Shown here piece after piece: positions 7,843-37,321 of a stretch of 64,000 nucleotides of DNA; within the stretch, counting starts at the first letter, position 1; each line of letters opens with the position of its first letter. The stretch spans positions 20,882 through 84,881 of the forward strand of contig JBBDML010000015.1 in the NCBI GenBank assembly GCA_040878345.1. The letters are read 5' to 3'. The translations under genes were made by a program, and so were the position numbers. The notes beneath the pieces are model-generated. The model was given only the letters and a program-made list of their open reading frames with translations. It did not search any database and had not been told where the DNA came from. Origin of the DNA: Acidimicrobiia bacterium. Its GTDB lineage: Bacteria; Actinomycetota; Acidimicrobiia; Spongiisociales; ZC4RG35.

Positions 7843-7915
7843 TGGGTCCCGTGGGAATCGAACCCACAACCTTCGGGTTAAAAGCCCGCTGCTCTACCAA
7901 TTGAGCTAGAGACCC
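7843..7915 (-). tRNA. tRNA-Lys (anticodon UUU)
   Basis: Minus-strand sequence GGGTCTCTAGCTCAATTGGTAGAGCAGCGGGCTTTTAACCCGAAGGTTGTGGGTTCGATTCCCACGGGACCCA folds as a cloverleaf. The acceptor stem is GGGTCTC/GGGACCC, with a D-arm and a T-arm GTGGG-TTCGATT-CCCAC. The anticodon loop is CTTTTAA. A genomic CC follows the discriminator base. Confidence 0.85.
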
Positions 7916-8993: not shown

Positions 8994-9863
8994 ATGCGTT
9001 GGTACGGTTCGACGATGTTCGATCCCTATCTGGGCTGCCGGGTGGTCAACTGCGGGGAGTGCAATGTGACTGTGACCGATCATGGGACCACCGAAGGGTT
9101 TCCCGTGCTCCTGGTGCATGGTTTTCCCGACTCGGCCCGGCTCTGGCGTCATCAGATCCCGGTCCTGGCAGATGCCGGGTATCGGGTGATCGCCCCCGAT
9201 CTCAGGGGTTATGGCCGCTCGGACAAGCCCCAGGGCGTCGAGGCCTACCAGATGTCGAAACTCGCCTCCGACCTGGTAGCCGTGCTCGACGAGGCCGGTG
9301 TCGAACGGGCCCATCTGGTGGGCCACGACTGGGGCGCCGCCCTCGGCTGGTACTTCGCCGCCACTCATCCAGACCGTCTCAAGACCCTCACTGCCTTGTC
9401 CGCGGGGCACGCAGGTGGCTTCGCCGCAGCCGGCGTGGCACAACGGGAGAAGAGCTGGTACATGCTGTACTTCCTGATCGAGGGTCTCGCCGAATCGAGA
9501 CTCCCCGCCGACGATTGGTATTGGTTCCGCTCCTGGATCGGGCGTCATCCCGAGGTCGAGACCTGGATTGCAGACCTGAGCAGGCCCGGGGCCCTCACCG
9601 CAGCCCTGAATGTCTACCGGGCCAACATCAACCCCGAGACCTGGATCACACCACCCCGGGCTCTCCCCAAGGTCGAGGTTCCCACCATGGGAGTCTGGTC
9701 GGCCCGCGACCTTGCCCTGACCGAGACCCAGATGACCGCTTCCGGGGAGTTCGTGTCGGGGGAGTGGAGATACGAGAGGATCGAGGGGGCTTCCCACTGG
9801 ATCCCGCTCGACACTCCCAATGAGCTCAACCGGCTCCTCCTCGATTGGTTGGGGACGCACTGA
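8994..9863 (+). CDS. Alpha/beta-fold hydrolase (epoxide hydrolase/haloalkane dehalogenase-like)
   Basis: VLLVHGFPDSARLWRHQIPVLADAGYRVIAPDLRGYGRSD and nucleophile elbow HLVGHDWGAA. The start is ATG 8994 or 9015; the ORF upstream of that is antisense noise. Confidence 0.7.
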   Translation: MRWYGSTMFDPYLGCRVVNCGECNVTVTDHGTTEGFPVLLVHGFPDSARLWRHQIPVLADAGYRVIAPDLRGYGRSDKPQGVEAYQMSKLASDLVAVLDEAGVERAHLVGHDWGAALGWYFAATHPDRLKTLTALSAGHAGGFAAAGVAQREKSWYMLYFLIEGLAESRLPADDWYWFRSWIGRHPEVETWIADLSRPGALTAALNVYRANINPETWITPPRALPKVEVPTMGVWSARDLALTETQMTASGEFVSGEWRYERIEGASHWIPLDTPNELNRLLLDWLGTH

Positions 9864-9867
9864 TCCG

Positions 9868-11673
9868 GTGAGCGGCATCCGCTTCGGCATCTCCGACCTG
9901 CCGCCCGAAGGGTCAGACCCGGCGCTGTTCCTCGACGGGTTGGTGGAACAGGGTCATCGCGCCCTGGAACTGCCCTTCACCAAGGACTTCCCCTGGAAGG
10001 AGAAGCAATGCCAGGCGTTCGGGGTACTGGCCGCGGAGAGGGACATACGTCTCTCGGTGCATGCCCCCTACTTCGCCGGGCTGACCCTTCCCGAAGAGGA
10101 TCGGGGCAAGCAGTCCCTGGCCGCAATCGAGCACACCATGAAGCTGGGAAGGTGGCTGGGAGCACCGGTGATCGTTGCCCACTTCGGCTCCAATTACGAC
10201 GAGGACCCCGAGGTCCTGATGGATCGGATCAGGAAACGTCTCGACGCGGTGGCACCCAAGGTGGAGACGATCGGGGTGGGGTTGGGGCTGGAGACCGCCG
10301 GGAACCGAAGCTCCTTCGGGAGCCTGGGTGACATCGCCCAGCTCGTCTCGGAGTACAGCTTCGTCCGGCCGGTTGTCGACTGGGCTCACATCCACGCCAT
10401 GACCGGAGGCGGGCTCACCTCCAAGGCGGCCTTCCTCTCGGTCCTGGCCTTCATCAGAGACAGCTTCCCGGGGTGGATGATCTCGCCCCTCCAGGTGCAG
10501 TTCTCCGACAATCAGTTCGGCAGTGCTGGGGAGATTCGCCACGTGGCCTATGGGGAGGGGACTCTCAGGGTGGGGCCACTGGTCGATGCGGTCCTCGAGT
10601 CGGGGATGTCGATGGTCCTGATCTCCGAGGCACGCGACGCAGCTAGCCATGAGCTGATCTGGGAGGAGGCGAGAGCCCATCTCGAGGATCGGAGGGAGGG
10701 CGAGGGCCGGCTGGTCGCCCGGGCCCAGATCGACTTCCCAACGCCGGTGAGGGTGCGCAAGGATGGTGACAGGTTCGTCCCCGCCGACGTCGACAGGCCG
10801 ATCACCTTCACCAACATCGACAAGGTGTTCTTCCCCGAGGAGGGCTACACCAAGGGTGACCTGATCCAGTATTACGGCTCGGTGGCGCCGGCCCTGCTGC
10901 CCCATATCACCGATCGGCCCCTCTCGATGTCCCGCTATCCCGACGGGATCACCGGGCCATCGTTCTACGAGAAGAGGGCGCCGGGTCATCAGCCCGACTG
11001 GATGCGGACCACCCCGGTCCCATCCGACAGCCAAGGCGGGGAGCTCGACTTCCTCCTCGCCGACTCGAAGGAGGCTGTGATGTGGTTTGCCAACATGGGC
11101 TGCATCGAGTTTCACCCTTTCCACTCGAAGGCCGCCGCACTCGACAACCCGACCTACGCGATCTTCGATTTCGACCCTTCGGAGGGCTCGACCTGGGATC
11201 AGGTGGTTGCCGGCTCCAAGCTGCTCCGGGTGGCCCTTGGCCAGCTGGGGCTCAGCGGGTATCCCAAGTTGAGCGGTTCGCGGGGGCTCCACGTCTACGT
11301 GCCCCTGGAGCCGGTGCACGACTTCGGCCGGGTCCGCCGCTTCGTCGGGGAGGTCGGCGAGTACATGGCGGCGGCCAACCCCGAGGACATCACCATGGAG
11401 TGGGACAAGCCGAAGCGGAAGGGCAAGGTGTTCATCGATCACAACCGGAACGCATTCGGGCAAACCGTTGCCTCCGCCTACTCGGTGCGTCCCCGTCCCG
11501 GGGCGCCGGTGTCGGCCCCCCTCTCCTGGGACGAGGTCGACACGGTGGTCAACGGTGACCTCACCATCGTCACCATCTGGGAGCGATTGGTCAGGTACGG
11601 CGATCTGTTCGCCCCGGTGCTCGCCGGCGGTCAGACCTTGGACGCCGCCGAGTCGGCCTTGGGGATCGCCTGA
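9868..11673 (+). CDS. Fusion protein: endonuclease-IV-like (AP endonuclease family 2, xylose-isomerase-like TIM barrel) N-domain + LigD-type NHEJ polymerase (PolDom/PrimPol) C-domain
   Basis: The N-terminal half resembles Nfo-family metal-site segments: IRFGIS..., HAPYFAGL, LETAGNRSSFGSLGDIAQLV, VDWAHIHAMTGG, HVAYGEGTLRVGPLVDAVLESGMSMVLISEA. The C-terminal half matches mycobacterial LigD PolDom blocks: ITFTNIDKVFFPEEGYTKGDLIQYY, SRYPDGITGPSFYEKRAPGHQPDW, YAIFDFDPSEG, YPKLSGSRGLHVYVPLEP, KRKGKVFIDHNRNAFGQTVASAYSVRPRPGAPVSAPLSWDEV. The start was chosen at the in-frame GTG 9868, just after the upstream stop. The ORF track starts at ATG 9820, which overlaps the hydrolase. Confidence 0.6.
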   Translation: MSGIRFGISDLPPEGSDPALFLDGLVEQGHRALELPFTKDFPWKEKQCQAFGVLAAERDIRLSVHAPYFAGLTLPEEDRGKQSLAAIEHTMKLGRWLGAPVIVAHFGSNYDEDPEVLMDRIRKRLDAVAPKVETIGVGLGLETAGNRSSFGSLGDIAQLVSEYSFVRPVVDWAHIHAMTGGGLTSKAAFLSVLAFIRDSFPGWMISPLQVQFSDNQFGSAGEIRHVAYGEGTLRVGPLVDAVLESGMSMVLISEARDAASHELIWEEARAHLEDRREGEGRLVARAQIDFPTPVRVRKDGDRFVPADVDRPITFTNIDKVFFPEEGYTKGDLIQYYGSVAPALLPHITDRPLSMSRYPDGITGPSFYEKRAPGHQPDWMRTTPVPSDSQGGELDFLLADSKEAVMWFANMGCIEFHPFHSKAAALDNPTYAIFDFDPSEGSTWDQVVAGSKLLRVALGQLGLSGYPKLSGSRGLHVYVPLEPVHDFGRVRRFVGEVGEYMAAANPEDITMEWDKPKRKGKVFIDHNRNAFGQTVASAYSVRPRPGAPVSAPLSWDEVDTVVNGDLTIVTIWERLVRYGDLFAPVLAGGQTLDAAESALGIA

Positions 11674-11691
11674 AGGCGTCTCCCCGGATCG

Positions 11692-11800
11692 TTCTGTGCG
11701 GATCTGTGACGGAGGGGTTCGCGCGAATCCGCACAGAACGGTCCCGCGATTCATTCTGTGCGGATCTGTGACGGAGGGGTTCGCGCGAATCCGCACAGAA
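11692..11800. repeat. Two tandem copies (period 62 bp) of a 47-nt perfect hairpin: TTCTGTGCGGAT-N23-ATCCGCACAGAA
   Basis: Units at 11692..11738 and 11754..11800 are identical over 50 nt, including the 23-nt loop CTGTGACGGAGGGGTTCGCGCGA. They lie between the Nfo-PolDom gene stop and the HisA-like gene start. Confidence 0.8.
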
Positions 11801-11859
11801 CGGGTCTGGGAGGGCCTTCTCCGGGATCGGGCGCTCGGCGTGTTCATTAGTGTTCCGGG

Positions 11860-12936
11860 ATGGACCTCTATGCCCGTGTCAACATCCTGGGAGGGCTCTC
11901 GGTCCGCCTGCCCCACGGCCAGCTCGATGAGGCCATCGCCCTGGACAACGATCCTGTGGGCCGAGCCCACAACTGGGCCCAACAGGGTGTCGACTACCTC
12001 CACGTCGTCGACCTCGACGCCGCCGCCTACGGCGATTACCGGAATCGTGACCTCATCGGCCGTCTCATCGAGGTGGCCGGGGTCCCGGTCCAGGTGGCTG
12101 GTGGGGTCCGCTCCGAGGCCGAGGCGGAACGACTGGTGGGCTTGGGGGCCTGGCGGATCGTGATGGGCACTGCCGCCATCGAGAACCAGATCATGGTGTG
12201 GGAGACGTGCCGTGACTACCCGGACAAGATCGTGGTGTCCCTCGACGTGAGAAAGAACGAGGAGGTGGCCACTCGGGGCTGGACCCAGAACAGCGGGAGG
12301 TTCCTCGAGGAGGTCCTCATCGAGATGTCGTCGGCGGGCGCGGTCGCCTTCCTCGTCTCCGAAGCGGGGAGGGACGCCCTCAACGAGGCGCCGAACTACG
12401 CGATCCTCGCCGAGGCCCTGGCCACGGTGGAGGAGCCGGTGATCGCAGCCGGAGGAGTCAGGGATGTCGAAGACCTGCGTCAACTGATCCAGCTCGAGGC
12501 CTCAGGTCGCCGGCTGGATGGGGTGATCGTCGGCAGGGAGGTGACTGCCGGCCGCTTCACCATCGCCGAGGCCAAGGAGATCCTGGCGGGTCGGGGCCCG
12601 ATGCGAGCCCCGGGCGGGATCAGCTCCACCAGGACTTCGGTGGGTGTCAGCTCCCTGGCCGCATCGGTCGACTTCTATGGAGACACTCTTGGCTTTCAGC
12701 GGGTCCGCACCCCATCTCAAGGGGTTGTGGCGGCCGTGGTCCAGGCCGCGCCCGGGCAGGAGATCGAACTGGTGGAAGGTGGCAGCGGCCGCCCCGAGAC
12801 CCTGGTGTTCCATGTCGACGATCTCCAACGATGGAAAGACCACTTGGCCAAGATGGGGGTTGCAGCCACCGCCACCGCCGGTGGGCTGGAGATCGTCGAC
12901 CCCGATGGGCTCCGAATCAGGCTCGAGCCGAGCTGA
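11860..12936 (+). CDS. HisA/PriA-like (beta/alpha)8 isomerase domain fused to C-terminal VOC (glyoxalase/bleomycin-resistance) domain
   Basis: The N-terminus MDLYARVNILGGLSVRLPHGQLDEAIALDNDPVGRAHNWAQQGVDYLHVVDLDAA resembles the HisA start (ILPAIDL..G..VRL). A second phosphate-binding half (VIAAGGVRDVEDLRQL) follows. The C-terminal 100 aa (VDFYGDTLGFQRV...LVFHVDDL) is VOC-like. Confidence 0.5.
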   Translation: MDLYARVNILGGLSVRLPHGQLDEAIALDNDPVGRAHNWAQQGVDYLHVVDLDAAAYGDYRNRDLIGRLIEVAGVPVQVAGGVRSEAEAERLVGLGAWRIVMGTAAIENQIMVWETCRDYPDKIVVSLDVRKNEEVATRGWTQNSGRFLEEVLIEMSSAGAVAFLVSEAGRDALNEAPNYAILAEALATVEEPVIAAGGVRDVEDLRQLIQLEASGRRLDGVIVGREVTAGRFTIAEAKEILAGRGPMRAPGGISSTRTSVGVSSLAASVDFYGDTLGFQRVRTPSQGVVAAVVQAAPGQEIELVEGGSGRPETLVFHVDDLQRWKDHLAKMGVAATATAGGLEIVDPDGLRIRLEPS

Positions 12937-24091: not shown

Positions 24092-24523
24092 ATGCTCACC
24101 GTCCTATCCGACCCGAGTCTCTACGACTTCACCGGTGGCATCCCCCCGACCAGGGCCGGGCTCGAAGCCCGATACCGGGCCCAGGTGGCCGGGCCCCCTG
24201 ACGGTGACCAGCAGTGGCACAACTGGATCATCCGTCTCGCCGACACCCATGCCGCGGTGGGCTTCGTCCAGGCCACCGTCACGGATCAGACCGCCGACAT
24301 CGCCTGGGTGGTGGGAGTGAAGTGGCAGGGCCGTGGCATTGCCACCGAGTCGGCCTCGGCGATGTGCCATTGGCTGGCGGGGGTCGGAGTGAAGCGGCTG
24401 GTCGCCCACATCCATCCCGACAACCGGGCATCGGCGCGAGTGGCGGCATCGCTGGGACTGCGGATCAGCGGTGAGGTTGATGACGACGGCGAGATGATTT
24501 GGGACAAACGGGTCGAAGCGTGA
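24092..24523 (+). CDS. GNAT-family N-acetyltransferase
   Basis: WQGRGIATES acetyl-CoA-binding motif. The upstream in-frame sequence RLELRPLEVTDAAE looks like part of the protein, so the start may be non-canonical or the gene N-truncated. Confidence 0.5.
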   Translation: MLTVLSDPSLYDFTGGIPPTRAGLEARYRAQVAGPPDGDQQWHNWIIRLADTHAAVGFVQATVTDQTADIAWVVGVKWQGRGIATESASAMCHWLAGVGVKRLVAHIHPDNRASARVAASLGLRISGEVDDDGEMIWDKRVEA

Positions 24524-24563
24524 GTAGATCAGGTCGTTGTACGACGTCACCTACTCACGCTCA
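24515..24563. repeat. REP-like intergenic hairpin, family member A (GCGTGAGTAG...CTACTCACGC)
   Basis: Imperfect long hairpin between the convergent GNAT and carboxyltransferase genes. It shares the GAGCGTGAGTAGAT/ATCTACTCACGCTC arms with copies B-E. Confidence 0.6.
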
Positions 24564-27813: not shown

Positions 27814-27925
27814 TCAGCTGAGCGAGCGTCCTCCTCCAACGACGATCACCTCGCCGGTGACGTAGGAGGACAGCGGGGTGAGGAGGAACCAGGCCACATC
27901 GGCGATTTCGCCAGGCGTGCTGAAT
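27814..27925 (-). pseudogene. Duplicated 3' fragment (last ~35 codons) of the SDR gene at 29440..30141
   Basis: About 80 nt (27841..27920) match 29463..29547. The encoded C-terminus MGTPGEIADVAWFLLTPLSSYVTGEVIVVGGGRSLS matches the SDR C-terminus and ends at a stop. It is bounded upstream by a REP hairpin. Confidence 0.5.
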
Positions 27926-27926
27926 C

Positions 27927-27973
27927 GAGCGTGAGTAGATGGGGTCGTTTTTCGACTCCATCTACTCACGCTC
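27927..27973. repeat. REP-like hairpin, copy B (GAGCGTGAGTAGATGG-N15-CCATCTACTCACGCTC)
   Basis: 47 nt with a 16-bp perfect stem. The inner stem is GTCG/CGAC with a TTTTT loop. Confidence 0.7.
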
Positions 27974-27996: not shown

Positions 27997-29391
27997 ATGG
28001 AAAGCAGTACCCACCGTTCCCTGAAGCGGGTCGCCGACGTGGTCACCGAATACCGGACCAGCCTGGCGACCGCCCGGGTGACGTCGGCCATGACCCGGGA
28101 CCAGGTGAGATCCCAACTCGATCAGGAGTTGCCGCAGGTCGGGGAGAGCACGGACGTGGTGCTCGACAAGCTGGTGGCCGGAGCTACACCAGGTCTTATG
28201 GCCTCCGCCGGCCCCCGATATTTCGGGTTTGTCATTGGTGGTGCGCTAGACGCCGCATTGGTGGCGGATTTGGTTGCCGCGGGATGGGACCAGAACGCAT
28301 TCAATGAGGTGACCTCCCCGGCCAGCATCGCCTTCGAGGACCTCGCCGGCACCTGGCTCAAGGATCTGCTCGGGATCCCCTCCACCGCCTCGGTCGGGTT
28401 CGTCACCGGCGCCCAGGGTGCCAACACGGTCGGCCTGGCTGCGGGGAGATGGAAGGTGCTCCACGATCGCGGCTGGGACGTAGGGATCGACGGGCTGTTC
28501 GGTGCCCCCCGGGTCCGGGTGGTGGTTGGAGAGGAGCGGCACGCCACCATCGACCGGTCCCTTCGCCTCCTCGGGTTGGGGGAGCGGTCGGTGGTAGTGG
28601 TCCCGGTCACTTCCGACGGGGCGATGGACGCTGAGGCGTTGCGGGCAACCCTCGCCTCGGACCCCGATGCGCCGACAATCGTCTCCGCCCAGGCAGGGAA
28701 CGTGAACACTGGGGCTTTCGACGATCTGCCCTCCATCGGGACCGCGGTGAGAGAGCTTGGGGGGTGGCTCCATGTCGACGGAGCCTTCGGCCTCTGGGCC
28801 GGGGCATCACCGGCGACCCGGCATCTCGTCGATGGGATCGAGCTGGCCCACTCCTGGGGTTGCGACGGCCACAAGTGGCTCAACGTCCCCTACGACTCGG
28901 GTTACGCCTTCTGCTCGGACCCCGATGTCCATGCCACCTCGATGGCCTACACCGCGGCCTATCTGACCGGTCAGGAAGCGGGGAGGCAGTTCGGTGGCGG
29001 GGACTTCGTTGCCGAGTCGTCCCGGAGAGCGAGGGGATTCGCCACCTGGGCGGCCCTCCGATCGCTCGGGCGCGAGGGTGTCTCCGGCCTGATCGACAGG
29101 TGCTGTTCGCTGGCCCGGCGATTAGCCGAAGGCATCGACGAGATACCGGGAGCCGAGGTGGTGAACGAGGTGGTGCTCAATCAGGTCCTGGTCAGGGTGG
29201 GGGGCGACGCCCTCACGCGTGCGGTGGAGCGCCTGATCCAGGAGGAAGGTGTCTGCTGGCTGGGGTCGACGGTGTGGCGCGGCGAACAGTTGCTCAGGGT
29301 CTCGGTCTCGAACTGGGCCACCACGGAGGAAGACATCGATCTCAGCGTGGGGTCGATGGCAAGGGCATTGGAGAGGGCCACGGCAAGCTGA
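27997..29391 (+). CDS. PLP-dependent group II amino-acid decarboxylase
   Basis: PLP-lysine block SWGCDGHKWLNVPYDSGYAF. Length and layout are typical of the family. Confidence 0.7.
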   Translation: MESSTHRSLKRVADVVTEYRTSLATARVTSAMTRDQVRSQLDQELPQVGESTDVVLDKLVAGATPGLMASAGPRYFGFVIGGALDAALVADLVAAGWDQNAFNEVTSPASIAFEDLAGTWLKDLLGIPSTASVGFVTGAQGANTVGLAAGRWKVLHDRGWDVGIDGLFGAPRVRVVVGEERHATIDRSLRLLGLGERSVVVVPVTSDGAMDAEALRATLASDPDAPTIVSAQAGNVNTGAFDDLPSIGTAVRELGGWLHVDGAFGLWAGASPATRHLVDGIELAHSWGCDGHKWLNVPYDSGYAFCSDPDVHATSMAYTAAYLTGQEAGRQFGGGDFVAESSRRARGFATWAALRSLGREGVSGLIDRCCSLARRLAEGIDEIPGAEVVNEVVLNQVLVRVGGDALTRAVERLIQEEGVCWLGSTVWRGEQLLRVSVSNWATTEEDIDLSVGSMARALERATAS

Positions 29392-29394
29392 ACC

Positions 29395-29441
29395 GAGCGT
29401 GAGTAGATGGGGTGGTTATTCGACGCCATCTACTCACGCTC
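29395..29441. repeat. REP-like hairpin, copy C
   Basis: Same 16-bp arms as copy B; the loop differs by a few nucleotides. It sits exactly between the convergent decarboxylase and SDR stops. Confidence 0.7.
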
Positions 29442-30141
29442 AGGAAAGGGACCTGCCCCCGCCGACCACGATCACCTCACCGGTGATGTAGGAAGACAGC
29501 GGGGTGAGAAGGAACCAGGCCACATCGGCGATTTCGCCAGGCGTGCCCATTCGATCCAGAGGTATGGCGGAGACCATTTTGGTGAGGACGTCTTCGGGGA
29601 TGGCCATGGCCATCTCTGTCCCGATCAGACCTGGGGCGATGGCGTTCACCCGAAGATGGGGCGCCAACGACAAGGCCATTGACCGGGTGAGCCCGACAAC
29701 TCCGCCTTTCGACATCGAGTAGTTGAACTGGCCGAAGTTGCCCAGATACGCCCTGGACGCGATGTTGACTATCGACCCGCCGTCCGACATGAGTGGGGCC
29801 AACTCTTTGCTGAGGCGATAGGAGACTCCCAGATTCACGTCAAGGACGCTCTTGAAGTCCTTGACGGACATGTTCACCAGACGCGAGTCCCGAGTGATCC
29901 CGGCATTGTTGACAAGGCCGATCAGCTCGGACCCGGTCCCCACGACCGCCTCGACCAGAGAGGCCAGCCCTGCTTCGGTGGTGAGGTCGGTCTCGACCTG
30001 GACCACATTGCCTTCGATCGAGGCGAGCTCCGGGGAGATGTCTGCTGCGACGACCGTGAAAGGGCCGCCGGTGGTCAGCCGTTCGGTGATGGCGCGCCCG
30101 ATACCGCGTGCTGCCCCGGTCACGACGATGGTTCCCTTCAC
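29440..30141 (-). CDS. Short-chain dehydrogenase/reductase (3-oxoacyl reductase-like)
   Basis: TGAARGIGRAI Rossmann motif, NNAG, and catalytic S...Y..K region. The start was chosen at GTG 30141, which overlaps the upstream stop as GTGA. The ORF track starts at 30297. Confidence 0.7.
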   Translation of the reverse strand: MKGTIVVTGAARGIGRAITERLTTGGPFTVVAADISPELASIEGNVVQVETDLTTEAGLASLVEAVVGTGSELIGLVNNAGITRDSRLVNMSVKDFKSVLDVNLGVSYRLSKELAPLMSDGGSIVNIASRAYLGNFGQFNYSMSKGGVVGLTRSMALSLAPHLRVNAIAPGLIGTEMAMAIPEDVLTKMVSAIPLDRMGTPGEIADVAWFLLTPLSSYITGEVIVVGGGRSLS

Positions 30142-30512
30142 GGCAGGGCCTTGCCGATATGGCCCGATCCGACTCGGATCAGCTCCCCGGTGACACCGCC
30201 CGAGTCGAGCATCCTCTCGGCCCATGTGGCGGCCAGGTCCCGCTGCCCCTCCTCCCCGTCCCAGGCGATGACATTGACGGTCCACCCTTTGGCCCACCCC
30301 TCGAGGGCTGCGGTCCTGGCAGCTGACAGGAGCCCGGTGGCGACCATCGCATCCCCGACCCCGCCACGACCGAGCAGGTCGTTGGTGTTGACCACGTAGA
30401 CGAAGGACTCACCCCTTTGGGCTGCGGCCCGGCTCATCTCGAAACCGCGCTCCAGCTCGGCGCGGACCTCGGGCCAGTCGTCGGAGACCCGGTCGGCCCA
30501 ATGGATGTTCAT
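30138..30512 (-). CDS. Hypothetical protein (operon member between CoA-transferase and SDR)
   Basis: 124 aa. Its start overlaps the CoA-transferase stop (ATGA) and its stop overlaps the SDR start (GTGA). No motif recognised. Confidence 0.35.
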   Translation of the reverse strand: MNIHWADRVSDDWPEVRAELERGFEMSRAAAQRGESFVYVVNTNDLLGRGGVGDAMVATGLLSAARTAALEGWAKGWTVNVIAWDGEEGQRDLAATWAERMLDSGGVTGELIRVGSGHIGKALP

Positions 30513-35972: not shown

Positions 35973-36827
35973 ATGGTCACCTCCACTCGGCCGGGGCGGG
36001 CGCTTGCCGGCAGGTTCGTCGCCGGCGACACCCTCGATGACGCCGTTGAGGCCGCCCATCGCCTCAACCGGGAGGGTCTCCTGGTCTCCCTCGACCTGCT
36101 CGGCGAGGAGGTGGGCGATCGAGACTCGGCGGTCCGCGCCACCGCAGAGTACCTAGCGTCGATCGACCGGATTTGGTCCGAGGGCCTCGATGCCAACATC
36201 TCGGTGAAGCCGACCCAACTCGGACTGGCCATCGACGTCGGGCTGGCAGCCGAGAACATCGAGAGGCTGGCTGGCGCCGCCGCCCGGCTGGGCACGACCG
36301 TGACCATCGACATGGAGGACTCCAGGTACACCGCCTCGACCGTCGACCTCTACGAGGAGGCCCAGGCACGCCATCGGAACCTGGGGATCGCCATCCAGGC
36401 CTATATGCGACGGACCCCCGAGGATCTCGCCCGTCTCATCCCCCTCGGGGGGCACATCCGGCTGTGCAAGGGCGCCTATGTCGAGCCGGAAGAGGTGGCT
36501 CTGACCTCGAAGGGGGAGGTCGATGAGGCCTTCGCCGATCAGCTGAGGACCCTGATGGCGTCCTCCGGGGCAAAGCCGGCGATCGCCACTCACGACCCGG
36601 ATCTGGTCGACCTGACCCGGGCCCTGGCCAGTGAGCGGACCACACCCTTCGAGTTCCAGATGCTCTATGGAGTCCGCCCCGAACTGCAGAGGTCGTTGAT
36701 CGCCGAGGGATTCCCATTGCGGGTGTACCTGCCCTTCGGCTCGGAGTGGTATCCGTACTTGACCCGCCGCCTGGCGGAGCGCCCGGCCAACGCCTGGTTC
36801 TTCGCCAGGTCGATGTTCACCCGTTGA
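35973..36827 (+). CDS. Proline dehydrogenase
   Basis: PRODH TIM-barrel blocks (RFVAGDTLDDAV, ISVKPTQLG, QAYMRRT, LCKGAY, QMLYGVRPEL). The in-frame upstream peptide LFSRLTAAVTQAAPIEK suggests a non-ATG start near 35922. Confidence 0.7.
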   Translation: MVTSTRPGRALAGRFVAGDTLDDAVEAAHRLNREGLLVSLDLLGEEVGDRDSAVRATAEYLASIDRIWSEGLDANISVKPTQLGLAIDVGLAAENIERLAGAAARLGTTVTIDMEDSRYTASTVDLYEEAQARHRNLGIAIQAYMRRTPEDLARLIPLGGHIRLCKGAYVEPEEVALTSKGEVDEAFADQLRTLMASSGAKPAIATHDPDLVDLTRALASERTTPFEFQMLYGVRPELQRSLIAEGFPLRVYLPFGSEWYPYLTRRLAERPANAWFFARSMFTR

Positions 36828-36872
36828 CCGTGAGCAGATGAGGTAGCCAGGCCACGTCATTCACTCACGCTT
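36828..36872. repeat. REP-like hairpin, degenerate copy D
   Basis: CGTGAGCAGATGA...TCATTCACTCACGC. Immediately after the proline dehydrogenase stop. Confidence 0.45.
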
Positions 36873-36898: not shown

Positions 36899-37255
36899 AT
36901 GGCCATCACCCCTGAGCTGACGGAGAAGCTGGCATCGATGCGGACCATCGACCTGACCACTTATGGGAGGAAGACCGGACGGCCACGTCGGATCGAGATC
37001 TGGTGGTTCCACGTCGACGGTCGGTTCATCATCTCCGGCACACCAGGACGACGAGACTGGCTGGCGAACATAAGGGCCAATCCGAATGTGATCGTGCATG
37101 CCGGCGGGCACGATCTCGATGGGGTTGCGGCCGAGATCGTCGACCCAAGCTTCCGGCGGCACGTCTTCAAGTCGCCCCACACCCGTTGGTACTCCACCCA
37201 GGCCCAGTTGGAGCGGCTGGTCGAGACCGCCCCGATGATCGAGATCGCCCTCTGA
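36899..37255 (+). CDS. Deazaflavin(F420)-dependent nitroreductase / PNPOx-like split-barrel family protein
   Basis: 118 aa; TYGRKTGRPRRIEIWWFHVDGRFIISGT is typical of the DUF385/Ddn-like family. Confidence 0.45.
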   Translation: MAITPELTEKLASMRTIDLTTYGRKTGRPRRIEIWWFHVDGRFIISGTPGRRDWLANIRANPNVIVHAGGHDLDGVAAEIVDPSFRRHVFKSPHTRWYSTQAQLERLVETAPMIEIAL

Positions 37256-37273: not shown

Positions 37274-37321
37274 GAGCGTGAGCAGTTGGCGTAGTTGTGC
37301 GACGTCAATTACTCACGCTTC
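37274..37321. repeat. REP-like hairpin, degenerate copy E
   Basis: GAGCGTGAGCAGTTG...CAATTACTCACGCT. Immediately after the stop of the F420-type reductase gene. Confidence 0.45.

Follow-up and report, generated by a model that had tools for sequence, protein, structure and literature searches.

Only one enzyme class, the RAYT tyrosine transposases (REP-associated tyrosine transposases; REP, repetitive extragenic palindrome), is to our knowledge established as a partner of bacterial extragenic palindromes. Two further described systems lie close to the element reported here. At their own promoters, AbiEi and Rv2827c bind as monomers to paired inverted repeats of 23 bp (PMC7319586). The Tuberculosis Rho-independent terminator motif (TRIT) is represented by 147 palindromic, sequence-conserved copies at gene ends of Mycobacterium tuberculosis; it has been reported from Mycobacterium only, is centred ~8 nt inside the coding sequence and was reported without a gene association, its authors suspecting a binding factor (PMC3152330). 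The present analysis concerns a tandem pair of 47-nt hairpins in a stretch of 64,000 nt from an Acidimicrobiia bacterium (contig JBBDML010000015.1 of assembly GCA_040878345.1; the entire stretch is referred to as the window, and positions are counted from its first letter). These hairpins are two neighbouring solo members of a 47-bp palindromic repeat family dispersed in Acidimicrobiia, and this family is physically coupled to a gene for an AbiEi-Vsr-type nuclease, which other members of the family bracket.

The hairpin TTCTGTGCGGAT-CTGTGACGGAGGGGTTCGCGCGA-ATCCGCACAGAA was found at 11692-11738 and again at 11754-11800, with 47 of 47 positions identical between the copies, arms complementary in 12 of 12 positions and a centre of 23 nt. 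The cores are spaced by 62 nt from start to start, leaving a gap of 15 nt (11739-11753), and Tandem Repeats Finder reported a period of 62 at this site. The two identical 47-nt hairpins with perfect 12-bp stem and 62-nt spacing, noticed in an original prediction made from the letters of the window, were thereby verified. The repeated unit exceeds 47 nt, since the next CGG is common to both copies, and 11682-11741 and 11744-11803 (60 nt) are 93 % identical. The following units were delimited:

11689..11741, no strand: palindromic repeat copy 1 (core 11692-11738; covariance model 57.4 bits, E = 2.6e-16)
11742..11750, no strand: linker separating the 53-nt units (Tandem Repeats Finder)
11751..11803, no strand: palindromic repeat copy 2 (core 11754-11800; covariance model 55.5 bits, E = 1.1e-15)

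In copy 1, tcg/cgg flanks lengthen the stem and pairing extends out to 11686-11744. The predicted 23-nt loop holds for the length of the centre, not for its openness: on the + strand the centre continues the stem, partly via G-U pairs. Folded as RNA, the hairpin region reached -103.7 kcal/mol on the + strand (z = -5.4) and -81.5 on the - strand. Shuffled windows yielded zero matches to the 23-mer centre. Neither arms nor centre recur in the 64-kb window, where a covariance model of the family (71 members) likewise detected the two copies only (E ~1e-16; next match E = 0.12). A search of the hairpins against Rfam returned nothing at gathering score, and only chance-level microRNA and small RNA matches at a lax E-value. 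A CRISPR array, correctly dismissed in the original prediction, was rejected on account of the two units and their 15-nt gap; elsewhere the hairpin forms singles or arrays of at most four copies. The tandem pair originated either by local duplication or by two adjacent insertions.

When one genome per species (596 Gb in all) was scanned for both exact arms with 15-30 nt between them, 42 loci were retrieved, with 43 copies in the metagenome-assembled genomes (MAGs) of 11 Acidimicrobiia/Actinomycetota species. Among the readings first offered for the hairpins, that of a miniature mobile or dispersed repeat proved right, as copies locate at dozens of unrelated intergenic sites in these 11 species. 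Single genomes harbour up to 15 copies with perfect arms (MAG Ww567), and 9-10 were counted in KatS3mg011. The 12-bp arms do not vary from species to species, and nearly all centres measure 23 nt; centre sequences are alike inside one genome, differ between genomes and occur in both orientations. The 39 copies that could be classified lie between predicted genes, 16 in convergent, 16 in co-directional and 4 in divergent context, and 25 of 39 are located within 30 nt of a gene 3' end, most beginning 2-30 nt past the stop codon. Tandem arrays were also found in L016 (four copies) and in L044 and L045 (pairs). No matches to the hairpin were obtained in viral contigs. The same 12-bp arms were additionally encountered at L004 3744-3789 (Chlamydiae MAG) and L032 264-308 (Desulfovibrionaceae MAG), with centres of 22 and 21 nt, respectively, on AT-rich contigs with no nuclease gene nearby; the L004 hairpin resides inside a longer GC-rich palindromic island. 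Both are probably chance hairpins, because about one match of this kind should arise by coincidence from the long hairpins of 596 Gb; two are slightly above this expectation. In MFD02840.bin.2.66, the arm variants TTCTGTGAGTGT and TTCTGTGCGGAT occur together (L020 2815-2861 and 6360-6406), which suggests that one genome may harbour several subfamilies, a parallel to multiple REP/RAYT pairs.

Structural alignment of 71 non-identical copies, arm variants included, resulted in the consensus ccgTTCTGKG-N5-N23-N5-CMCAGAAcgg. Its invariant core TTCTGKG...CMCAGAA mostly carries ccg/cgg flanks, which are inverted and not direct, and the outer end (ccg)TTCTGKG is present in 71/71 aligned copies. The consensus may be read as a continuous helix of 24 pairs (3 flank, 12 arm and 9 inner pairs) and also as two 23-bp inverted half-sites round one central base (23+1+23). 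Over the 71 copies, 83 % of the helix cells are paired, versus 30-52 % with the partner columns slid. Both-sided changes were observed at 19 of the 24 pairs, the arm pairs 11/43, 12/42 and 14/40 being fully compensatory and never broken. Relative to gene sense, mismatches comprise 27 G-T versus 17 A-C, without wobble asymmetry, and the more stable strand is not consistently preferred among solo copies. Judged from these patterns, the conserved entity is taken to be a DNA-level palindrome, because neither an excess of G-T over A-C nor a consistent strand preference is apparent; extrusion as hairpin or cruciform is plausible. A strand-specific RNA element was considered and rejected: the window copies fold better on the + strand, but the family shows neither strand preference nor wobble asymmetry.

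In locus L002, two copies of the palindrome bracket a 302-aa open reading frame (ORF) matching AbiEi_4 and DUF559/MTES_1575. Homologs of this ORF were present in only three more of the hairpin-centred loci, from three other species, each adjoining a hairpin, and with one mismatch allowed a second flanking copy appeared in L011 and L031. Searching in the reverse direction, from the protein, retrieved 17 metagenome loci (40-95 % identity), to which 4 loci picked solely for long contigs were added. Where the contig covers both flanks, two palindromes bracket the gene in 19 of 21 loci; L048 and L049, nearly identical to each other, possess the downstream copy only, and four genes cut by a contig end all have a palindrome on the side present (4/4). 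The bracketing copies are 47 nt long (12+23+12), one located 30-60 nt before the start and the other at or overlapping the stop codon. The complete module (palindrome, 30-60 nt, gene for ~300 aa, palindrome) spans ~1.05 kb. No description of this association was found in Rfam, NCBIfam or the openly searchable literature, where the 12-mers matched human primers only, and it appears undescribed.

Arm sequences of the modules vary by lineage (AAGAT, AGGGT, AACGT, GGGCGGGG and others) and are always self-complementary, as exemplified by TTCTGTGAAGAT, TTCTGTGAGGGT, TTCTGTGAACGT, TTCTGGGCGGGG, TTCTGGGCGCAT and TCCTGCGCGTCT. One protein clade has its ORF terminating within the downstream arm (TTC CGT Gnn nnT TAG). 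The downstream palindrome of this clade has C for T at arm position 4 (TTCCGTG), producing a C-A mismatch, and the last codons read F-R-x-x-stop; this variant may represent a coding constraint or a deliberate asymmetry of the two flanking copies. It was located at:

L011 4586-4632: TTCCGTG downstream palindrome
L053 3874-3920: TTCCGTG downstream palindrome
L054 2025-2071: TTCCGTG downstream palindrome
L059 3886-3932: TTCCGTG downstream palindrome
L067 10903-10949: TTCCGTG downstream palindrome
L068 7655-7701: TTCCGTG downstream palindrome

Modules occupy at least six unrelated gene neighbourhoods, the neighbours being unrelated housekeeping genes, and no matches to the protein were obtained on plasmids. 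L011 and L012, from two species, share the module locus, with 51 % identity between the nucleases and 59-65 % between the neighbours; the similar divergence therefore argues for long vertical persistence of the module at this locus. Most database members of the protein family reside on contigs of ~1.0-1.3 kb, a length that would follow from assemblies breaking off at the flanking repeats.

All of 14 proteins tested match DUF559, 13 match MTES_1575 (a Vsr-type restriction-endonuclease domain) and 8 match AbiEi_4, while PADLOC models of AbiEi match residues 5-175 (E = 5e-32). In the AlphaFold2 model (pLDDT 93.7), Foldseek related the N-terminal ~200 residues to AbiEi (6y8q) and the last ~100 residues to the catalytic domain of the homing endonuclease I-Bth0305I (3r3p; TM-score 0.69 on target), the DUF559 protein 3hrl and Vsr (1cw0). 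The product is accordingly modelled as a fusion of a complete AbiEi-like DNA-binding module with a PD-(D/E)xK nuclease of Vsr/DUF559 type whose catalytic residues are intact. Invariance of D236, E247 and H254 across 42 sequences makes an active nuclease probable. Close relatives number at least 948 (E <= 1e-20), mostly annotated as hypothetical, DUF559 or AbiEi-domain proteins, and NCBIfam holds no name for the protein.

The relation of solo copies to modules is evident from one orthologous site, flanked by an ABC permease gene and an AzlD gene in convergent orientation, compared in four groups of relatives (permease identity measured to the protein of the module-bearing locus L067):

L076-78, permease 85 %: site empty, genes 2 nt apart
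L075, permease 89 %: single intact solo palindrome
L071-74, permease 94 %: solo palindrome, decayed
L067/68, query locus: full palindrome-gene-palindrome module

Solo copies and modules are alternative states of the same site.

The window pair itself is situated in the spacer between two genes, and the following features were identified there in addition to the hairpins:

9820..11673, + strand: upstream gene, AP_endonuc_2 and LigD Prim-Pol fusion (Pfam)
11848..11853, + strand: TAGTGT, a -10-like box 6 nt before the ATG of the downstream gene (alignment with hairpin-less relatives)
11860..12936, + strand: downstream gene, His_biosynth and Glyoxalase/VOC fusion, termed HisA-VOC (Pfam)

Pfam agrees with the flanking genes as first described, i.e. 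a non-homologous end joining fusion and a HisA-VOC fusion. The hairpins begin 18 nt past the stop codon of the LigD-type gene, the usual position for the repeat family, and copy 2 lies upstream of the next start as predicted, albeit 59 nt before the ATG at 11860 and not ~57 nt. A Logan contig of 1206 nt (L060), which contains the exact HisA-VOC gene, stops within hairpin copy 2, 84 nt upstream of this gene, which fits a breakage of assemblies at the repeat. The LigD-type/HisA-VOC spacer measures 186 nt in the window; HisA-VOC orthologs with 91 %, 88 % and 83 % identity have the same upstream LigD-type gene and spacers of 47, 42 and 42 nt, respectively, and no hairpin was found in the spacer DNA of the 91 % and 83 % relatives, the two for which DNA was retrieved. 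The hairpin pair is therefore regarded as an insertion in the window's lineage into a spacer of normally 42-47 nt, because relatives with the same gene order have short spacers without hairpin. A hairpin of Ww567 at seemingly the same LigD position was rejected as a counterpart, the Prim-Pol gene there being only 38 % identical and hence a paralog.

The pair lies upstream of the HisA-VOC gene, and two exact palindromes could bind a dimeric regulator, so that tandem operators or a structured leader specifically controlling this gene were considered. Leaderless transcripts are common in Actinomycetota. The TAGTGT/TAGGGT box 6 nt before the HisA-VOC ATG is kept in all aligned sequences, i.e. the window and three relatives, and suggests a leaderless HisA-VOC mRNA starting downstream of the hairpins; the hairpins would therefore lie upstream of the HisA-VOC promoter, in the 3' region of the LigD-fusion transcript. 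A structured 5' leader is consequently improbable. Control of this one gene is also at odds with the 43 unrelated sites in 11 species, with the orthologous loci of the same gene order devoid of hairpins and with the lack of any Rfam family match, and is given next to no credence. Dispersed copies and hairpin-less relatives with conserved gene order are precisely the two observations that the original prediction had named as speaking against a locus-specific role. Its operator reading fails for the HisA-VOC gene and survives at the level of the family, in the 23+1+23 geometry of AbiEi operators and in the position upstream of an AbiEi-fusion gene elsewhere. The window copies have, in all probability, no locus-specific role and are probably passive; they may provide an incidental stable 3' hairpin on the LigD-fusion transcript.

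The reading preferred here, to which a probability of roughly 0.7 is assigned, is that the window pair represents solo copies of a palindrome family whose master form brackets the AbiEi-DUF559 nuclease gene, with the following proposed mechanism. By analogy with AbiEi and Rv2827c, the AbiEi-like domain would bind both half-sites of the palindrome. Binding at the upstream copy would autoregulate the nuclease gene, and binding at solo copies would deliver the nuclease there. Nuclease-initiated repair or recombination between palindromes could then create, homogenise, delete or re-seed copies. Any two palindromes are direct and at the same time inverted repeats of each other, so that recombination between the flanking copies could excise the gene and leave a solo copy, and could also flip centres; such flipping would fit the mixed centre orientations observed. 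That the AbiEi-fused Vsr-like nuclease binds and cuts the 47-bp palindrome, and by this route propagates, homogenises or excises it, is put forward tentatively, as a functional analogue of REP-RAYT in which solo palindromes, the window pair among them, would be footprints or landing pads of the module; the mycobacterial TRIT might be a related case.

Several points weigh against this proposal. Binding, cutting or spreading of the repeats by the nuclease is argued by analogy. Compensatory change of the half-sites need not reflect hairpin or cruciform extrusion, since a duplex to which two identical monomers bind would change likewise. No homolog of the AbiEi-DUF559 protein is encoded in the 64-kb window, and the 10 kb flanking four of the modules on each side contained no solo copy. 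Four protein clades, only 40-50 % identical to one another, share CGGAT arms; a strict co-phylogeny of arm and protein accordingly found no support, arm type not being a simple marker of protein lineage. Finally, a second palindrome family of the window (type B, see below) brackets ordinary metabolic genes, and in repeat-rich DNA bracketing by itself counts for little.

Alternatively, the palindrome could function primarily as a sequence-conserved bidirectional transcription terminator or mRNA 3'-end hairpin of TRIT type, with the nuclease gene merely insulated on both sides. REPs likewise influence mRNA ends. Most copies are located no more than 30 nt from stop codons, many of them between convergent genes, the RNA hairpins are very stable and TRIT provides a precedent (PMC3152330). 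However, the stem is not followed by a U-tract, and the terminator scan of the window detected no site within 11692-11803, where the stems are followed by CGG. Wobble pairs are symmetric (27 G-T versus 17 A-C) without a steady strand preference, some copies reside in divergent promoter regions or 30-60 nt upstream of the nuclease gene, and close relatives terminate the same gene without a hairpin. A terminator would also leave unexplained that one gene family is bracketed near-obligately in all lineages and with all arm variants. As primary function it is thus considered unlikely, though termination and the coupling to the nuclease can both hold. The repeats could instead be classical REPs or REPINs (REP doublets forming hairpins) moved by a RAYT (Y1 HUH transposase), or miniature inverted-repeat transposable elements (MITEs) moved by the transposase of an insertion sequence (IS), the DUF559 gene being a bystander. 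They are indeed short, intergenic and palindromic, with several copies per genome that are alike within the genome. Yet the outer end reads TTCTG and lacks a GTAG/CGTC tag, and target-site duplications were found neither at solo or module borders nor on comparison of empty with filled sites. Furthermore, no recurrent transposase-like gene or family was detected in the ~330 kb covered around the 43 copies, and the bracketed gene is the AbiEi-DUF559 fusion in 19/21 loci. Mobilization by such transposases is deemed very improbable, and the coupling of the palindrome to the nuclease gene remains the preferred account.

Type B shares the geometry of 12+23+12 (47 nt) and has other arms (GAGCGTGAGTAG/CTACTCACGCTC); at least five copies are present in the window:

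24516-24562: type-B palindrome
27927-27973: type-B palindrome
29395-29441: type-B palindrome
36826-36872: type-B palindrome
37274-37320: type-B palindrome

Pairs of type B bracket a gene for a pyridoxal phosphate-dependent decarboxylase (27997-29391) and a small ORF resembling F420H2-quinone reductase (36899-37255). None of the 78 fetched loci contains a type-B palindrome. A direct repeat of ~91 nt (27830-27920 versus 29456-29546; 91 % identical) copies the 3' end of an SDR gene (29440-30297, - strand), resulting in the order SDR fragment, hairpin B, decarboxylase, hairpin B, SDR gene. It looks as if a decarboxylase cassette had been inserted and had duplicated the end of the SDR gene. In the relative L020, a type-A palindrome comes after the orthologous SDR gene, and a MaoC-like gene is immediately next. 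The sole Rfam match of the window at gathering score is a tRNA gene (7843-7915, - strand; 72.6 bits).

The locus itself is ordinary, with two stray repeat copies, and interest resides in the family to which they belong. A second, unrelated enzyme partner of extragenic palindromes would, if true, imply that repeat-enzyme symbioses arose more than once. It would also provide a very large family of unknown function (the at least 948 close relatives) with a concrete DNA substrate, and the combination of a fixed-geometry DNA target with a small nuclease would be open to study in vitro. From a practical perspective, the palindromes break short-read assemblies. As strong hairpins at gene ends, they may furthermore affect transcript 3' ends in an abundant and poorly cultured environmental class.

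Compared with known systems, the family shares single traits with several element types. Inverted termini and small non-coding copies are common to MITEs, which differ in having target-site duplications and a parental IS, both missing here. The attC sites of integrons resemble it in conserved outer boxes, a variable self-complementary centre and cassette-like units of gene plus hairpin; here, in contrast, integrase, attC R/L box consensus and cassette arrays are all absent. Canonical intrinsic terminators differ by the U-tract, in place of which CGG follows the window stems. The nearest described phenomenon in the phylum is TRIT. Compared by description, both are sequence-conserved, bidirectional palindromes which belong to an Actinomycetota lineage of high GC content and occupy narrowly defined positions at gene ends, TRIT ~8 nt inside the stop codon and most copies of the present family beginning 2-30 nt after it.

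On the protein side, I-Bth0305I and other homing endonucleases of the Vsr-like (EDxHD) type, together with the Vsr-like genes that stand free in 'fractured genes' (PMC3239194, PMC2677866), have the same C-terminal fold and likewise form small, selfish-looking one-gene modules in varied neighbourhoods. Unlike these, the present module is bracketed by palindromes and is neither phage-borne nor located in an intron or intein. With AbiEi and Rv2827c, the antitoxins of type IV toxin-antitoxin systems (PMC7319586), the N-terminal ~175-200 residues agree in sequence and fold, and a 23+1+23-bp palindrome resides 30-60 nt upstream of the start in 19/21 module loci, as in their operators. In contrast to AbiE, the modules consist of a single gene without an adjacent AbiEii (DUF1814 nucleotidyltransferase) toxin gene. 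Different from the operators, the candidate binding site is found again past the end of the gene and as numerous solo copies, a nuclease fused to the binder takes the role of partner, and the window copies have no AbiEi-family gene in the window.

The closest parallel is offered by REP/REPIN-RAYT systems. Both involve short palindromes dispersed in intergenic DNA, often at gene 3' ends and alike within a genome, a usually single-copy enzyme gene between two copies, and vertical persistence across species at one locus. The present family differs in that the GTAG/CGTC end tag is absent, GTAG occurring only sporadically inside the variable centre, and in that genomes harbour tens of copies and not hundreds. 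It is further distinguished by a fixed 47-bp unit with conserved outer and variable inner stem, and by an enzyme which is predicted to combine an AbiEi-like binder with a Vsr/DUF559 PD-(D/E)xK nuclease instead of a Y1 HUH transposase.
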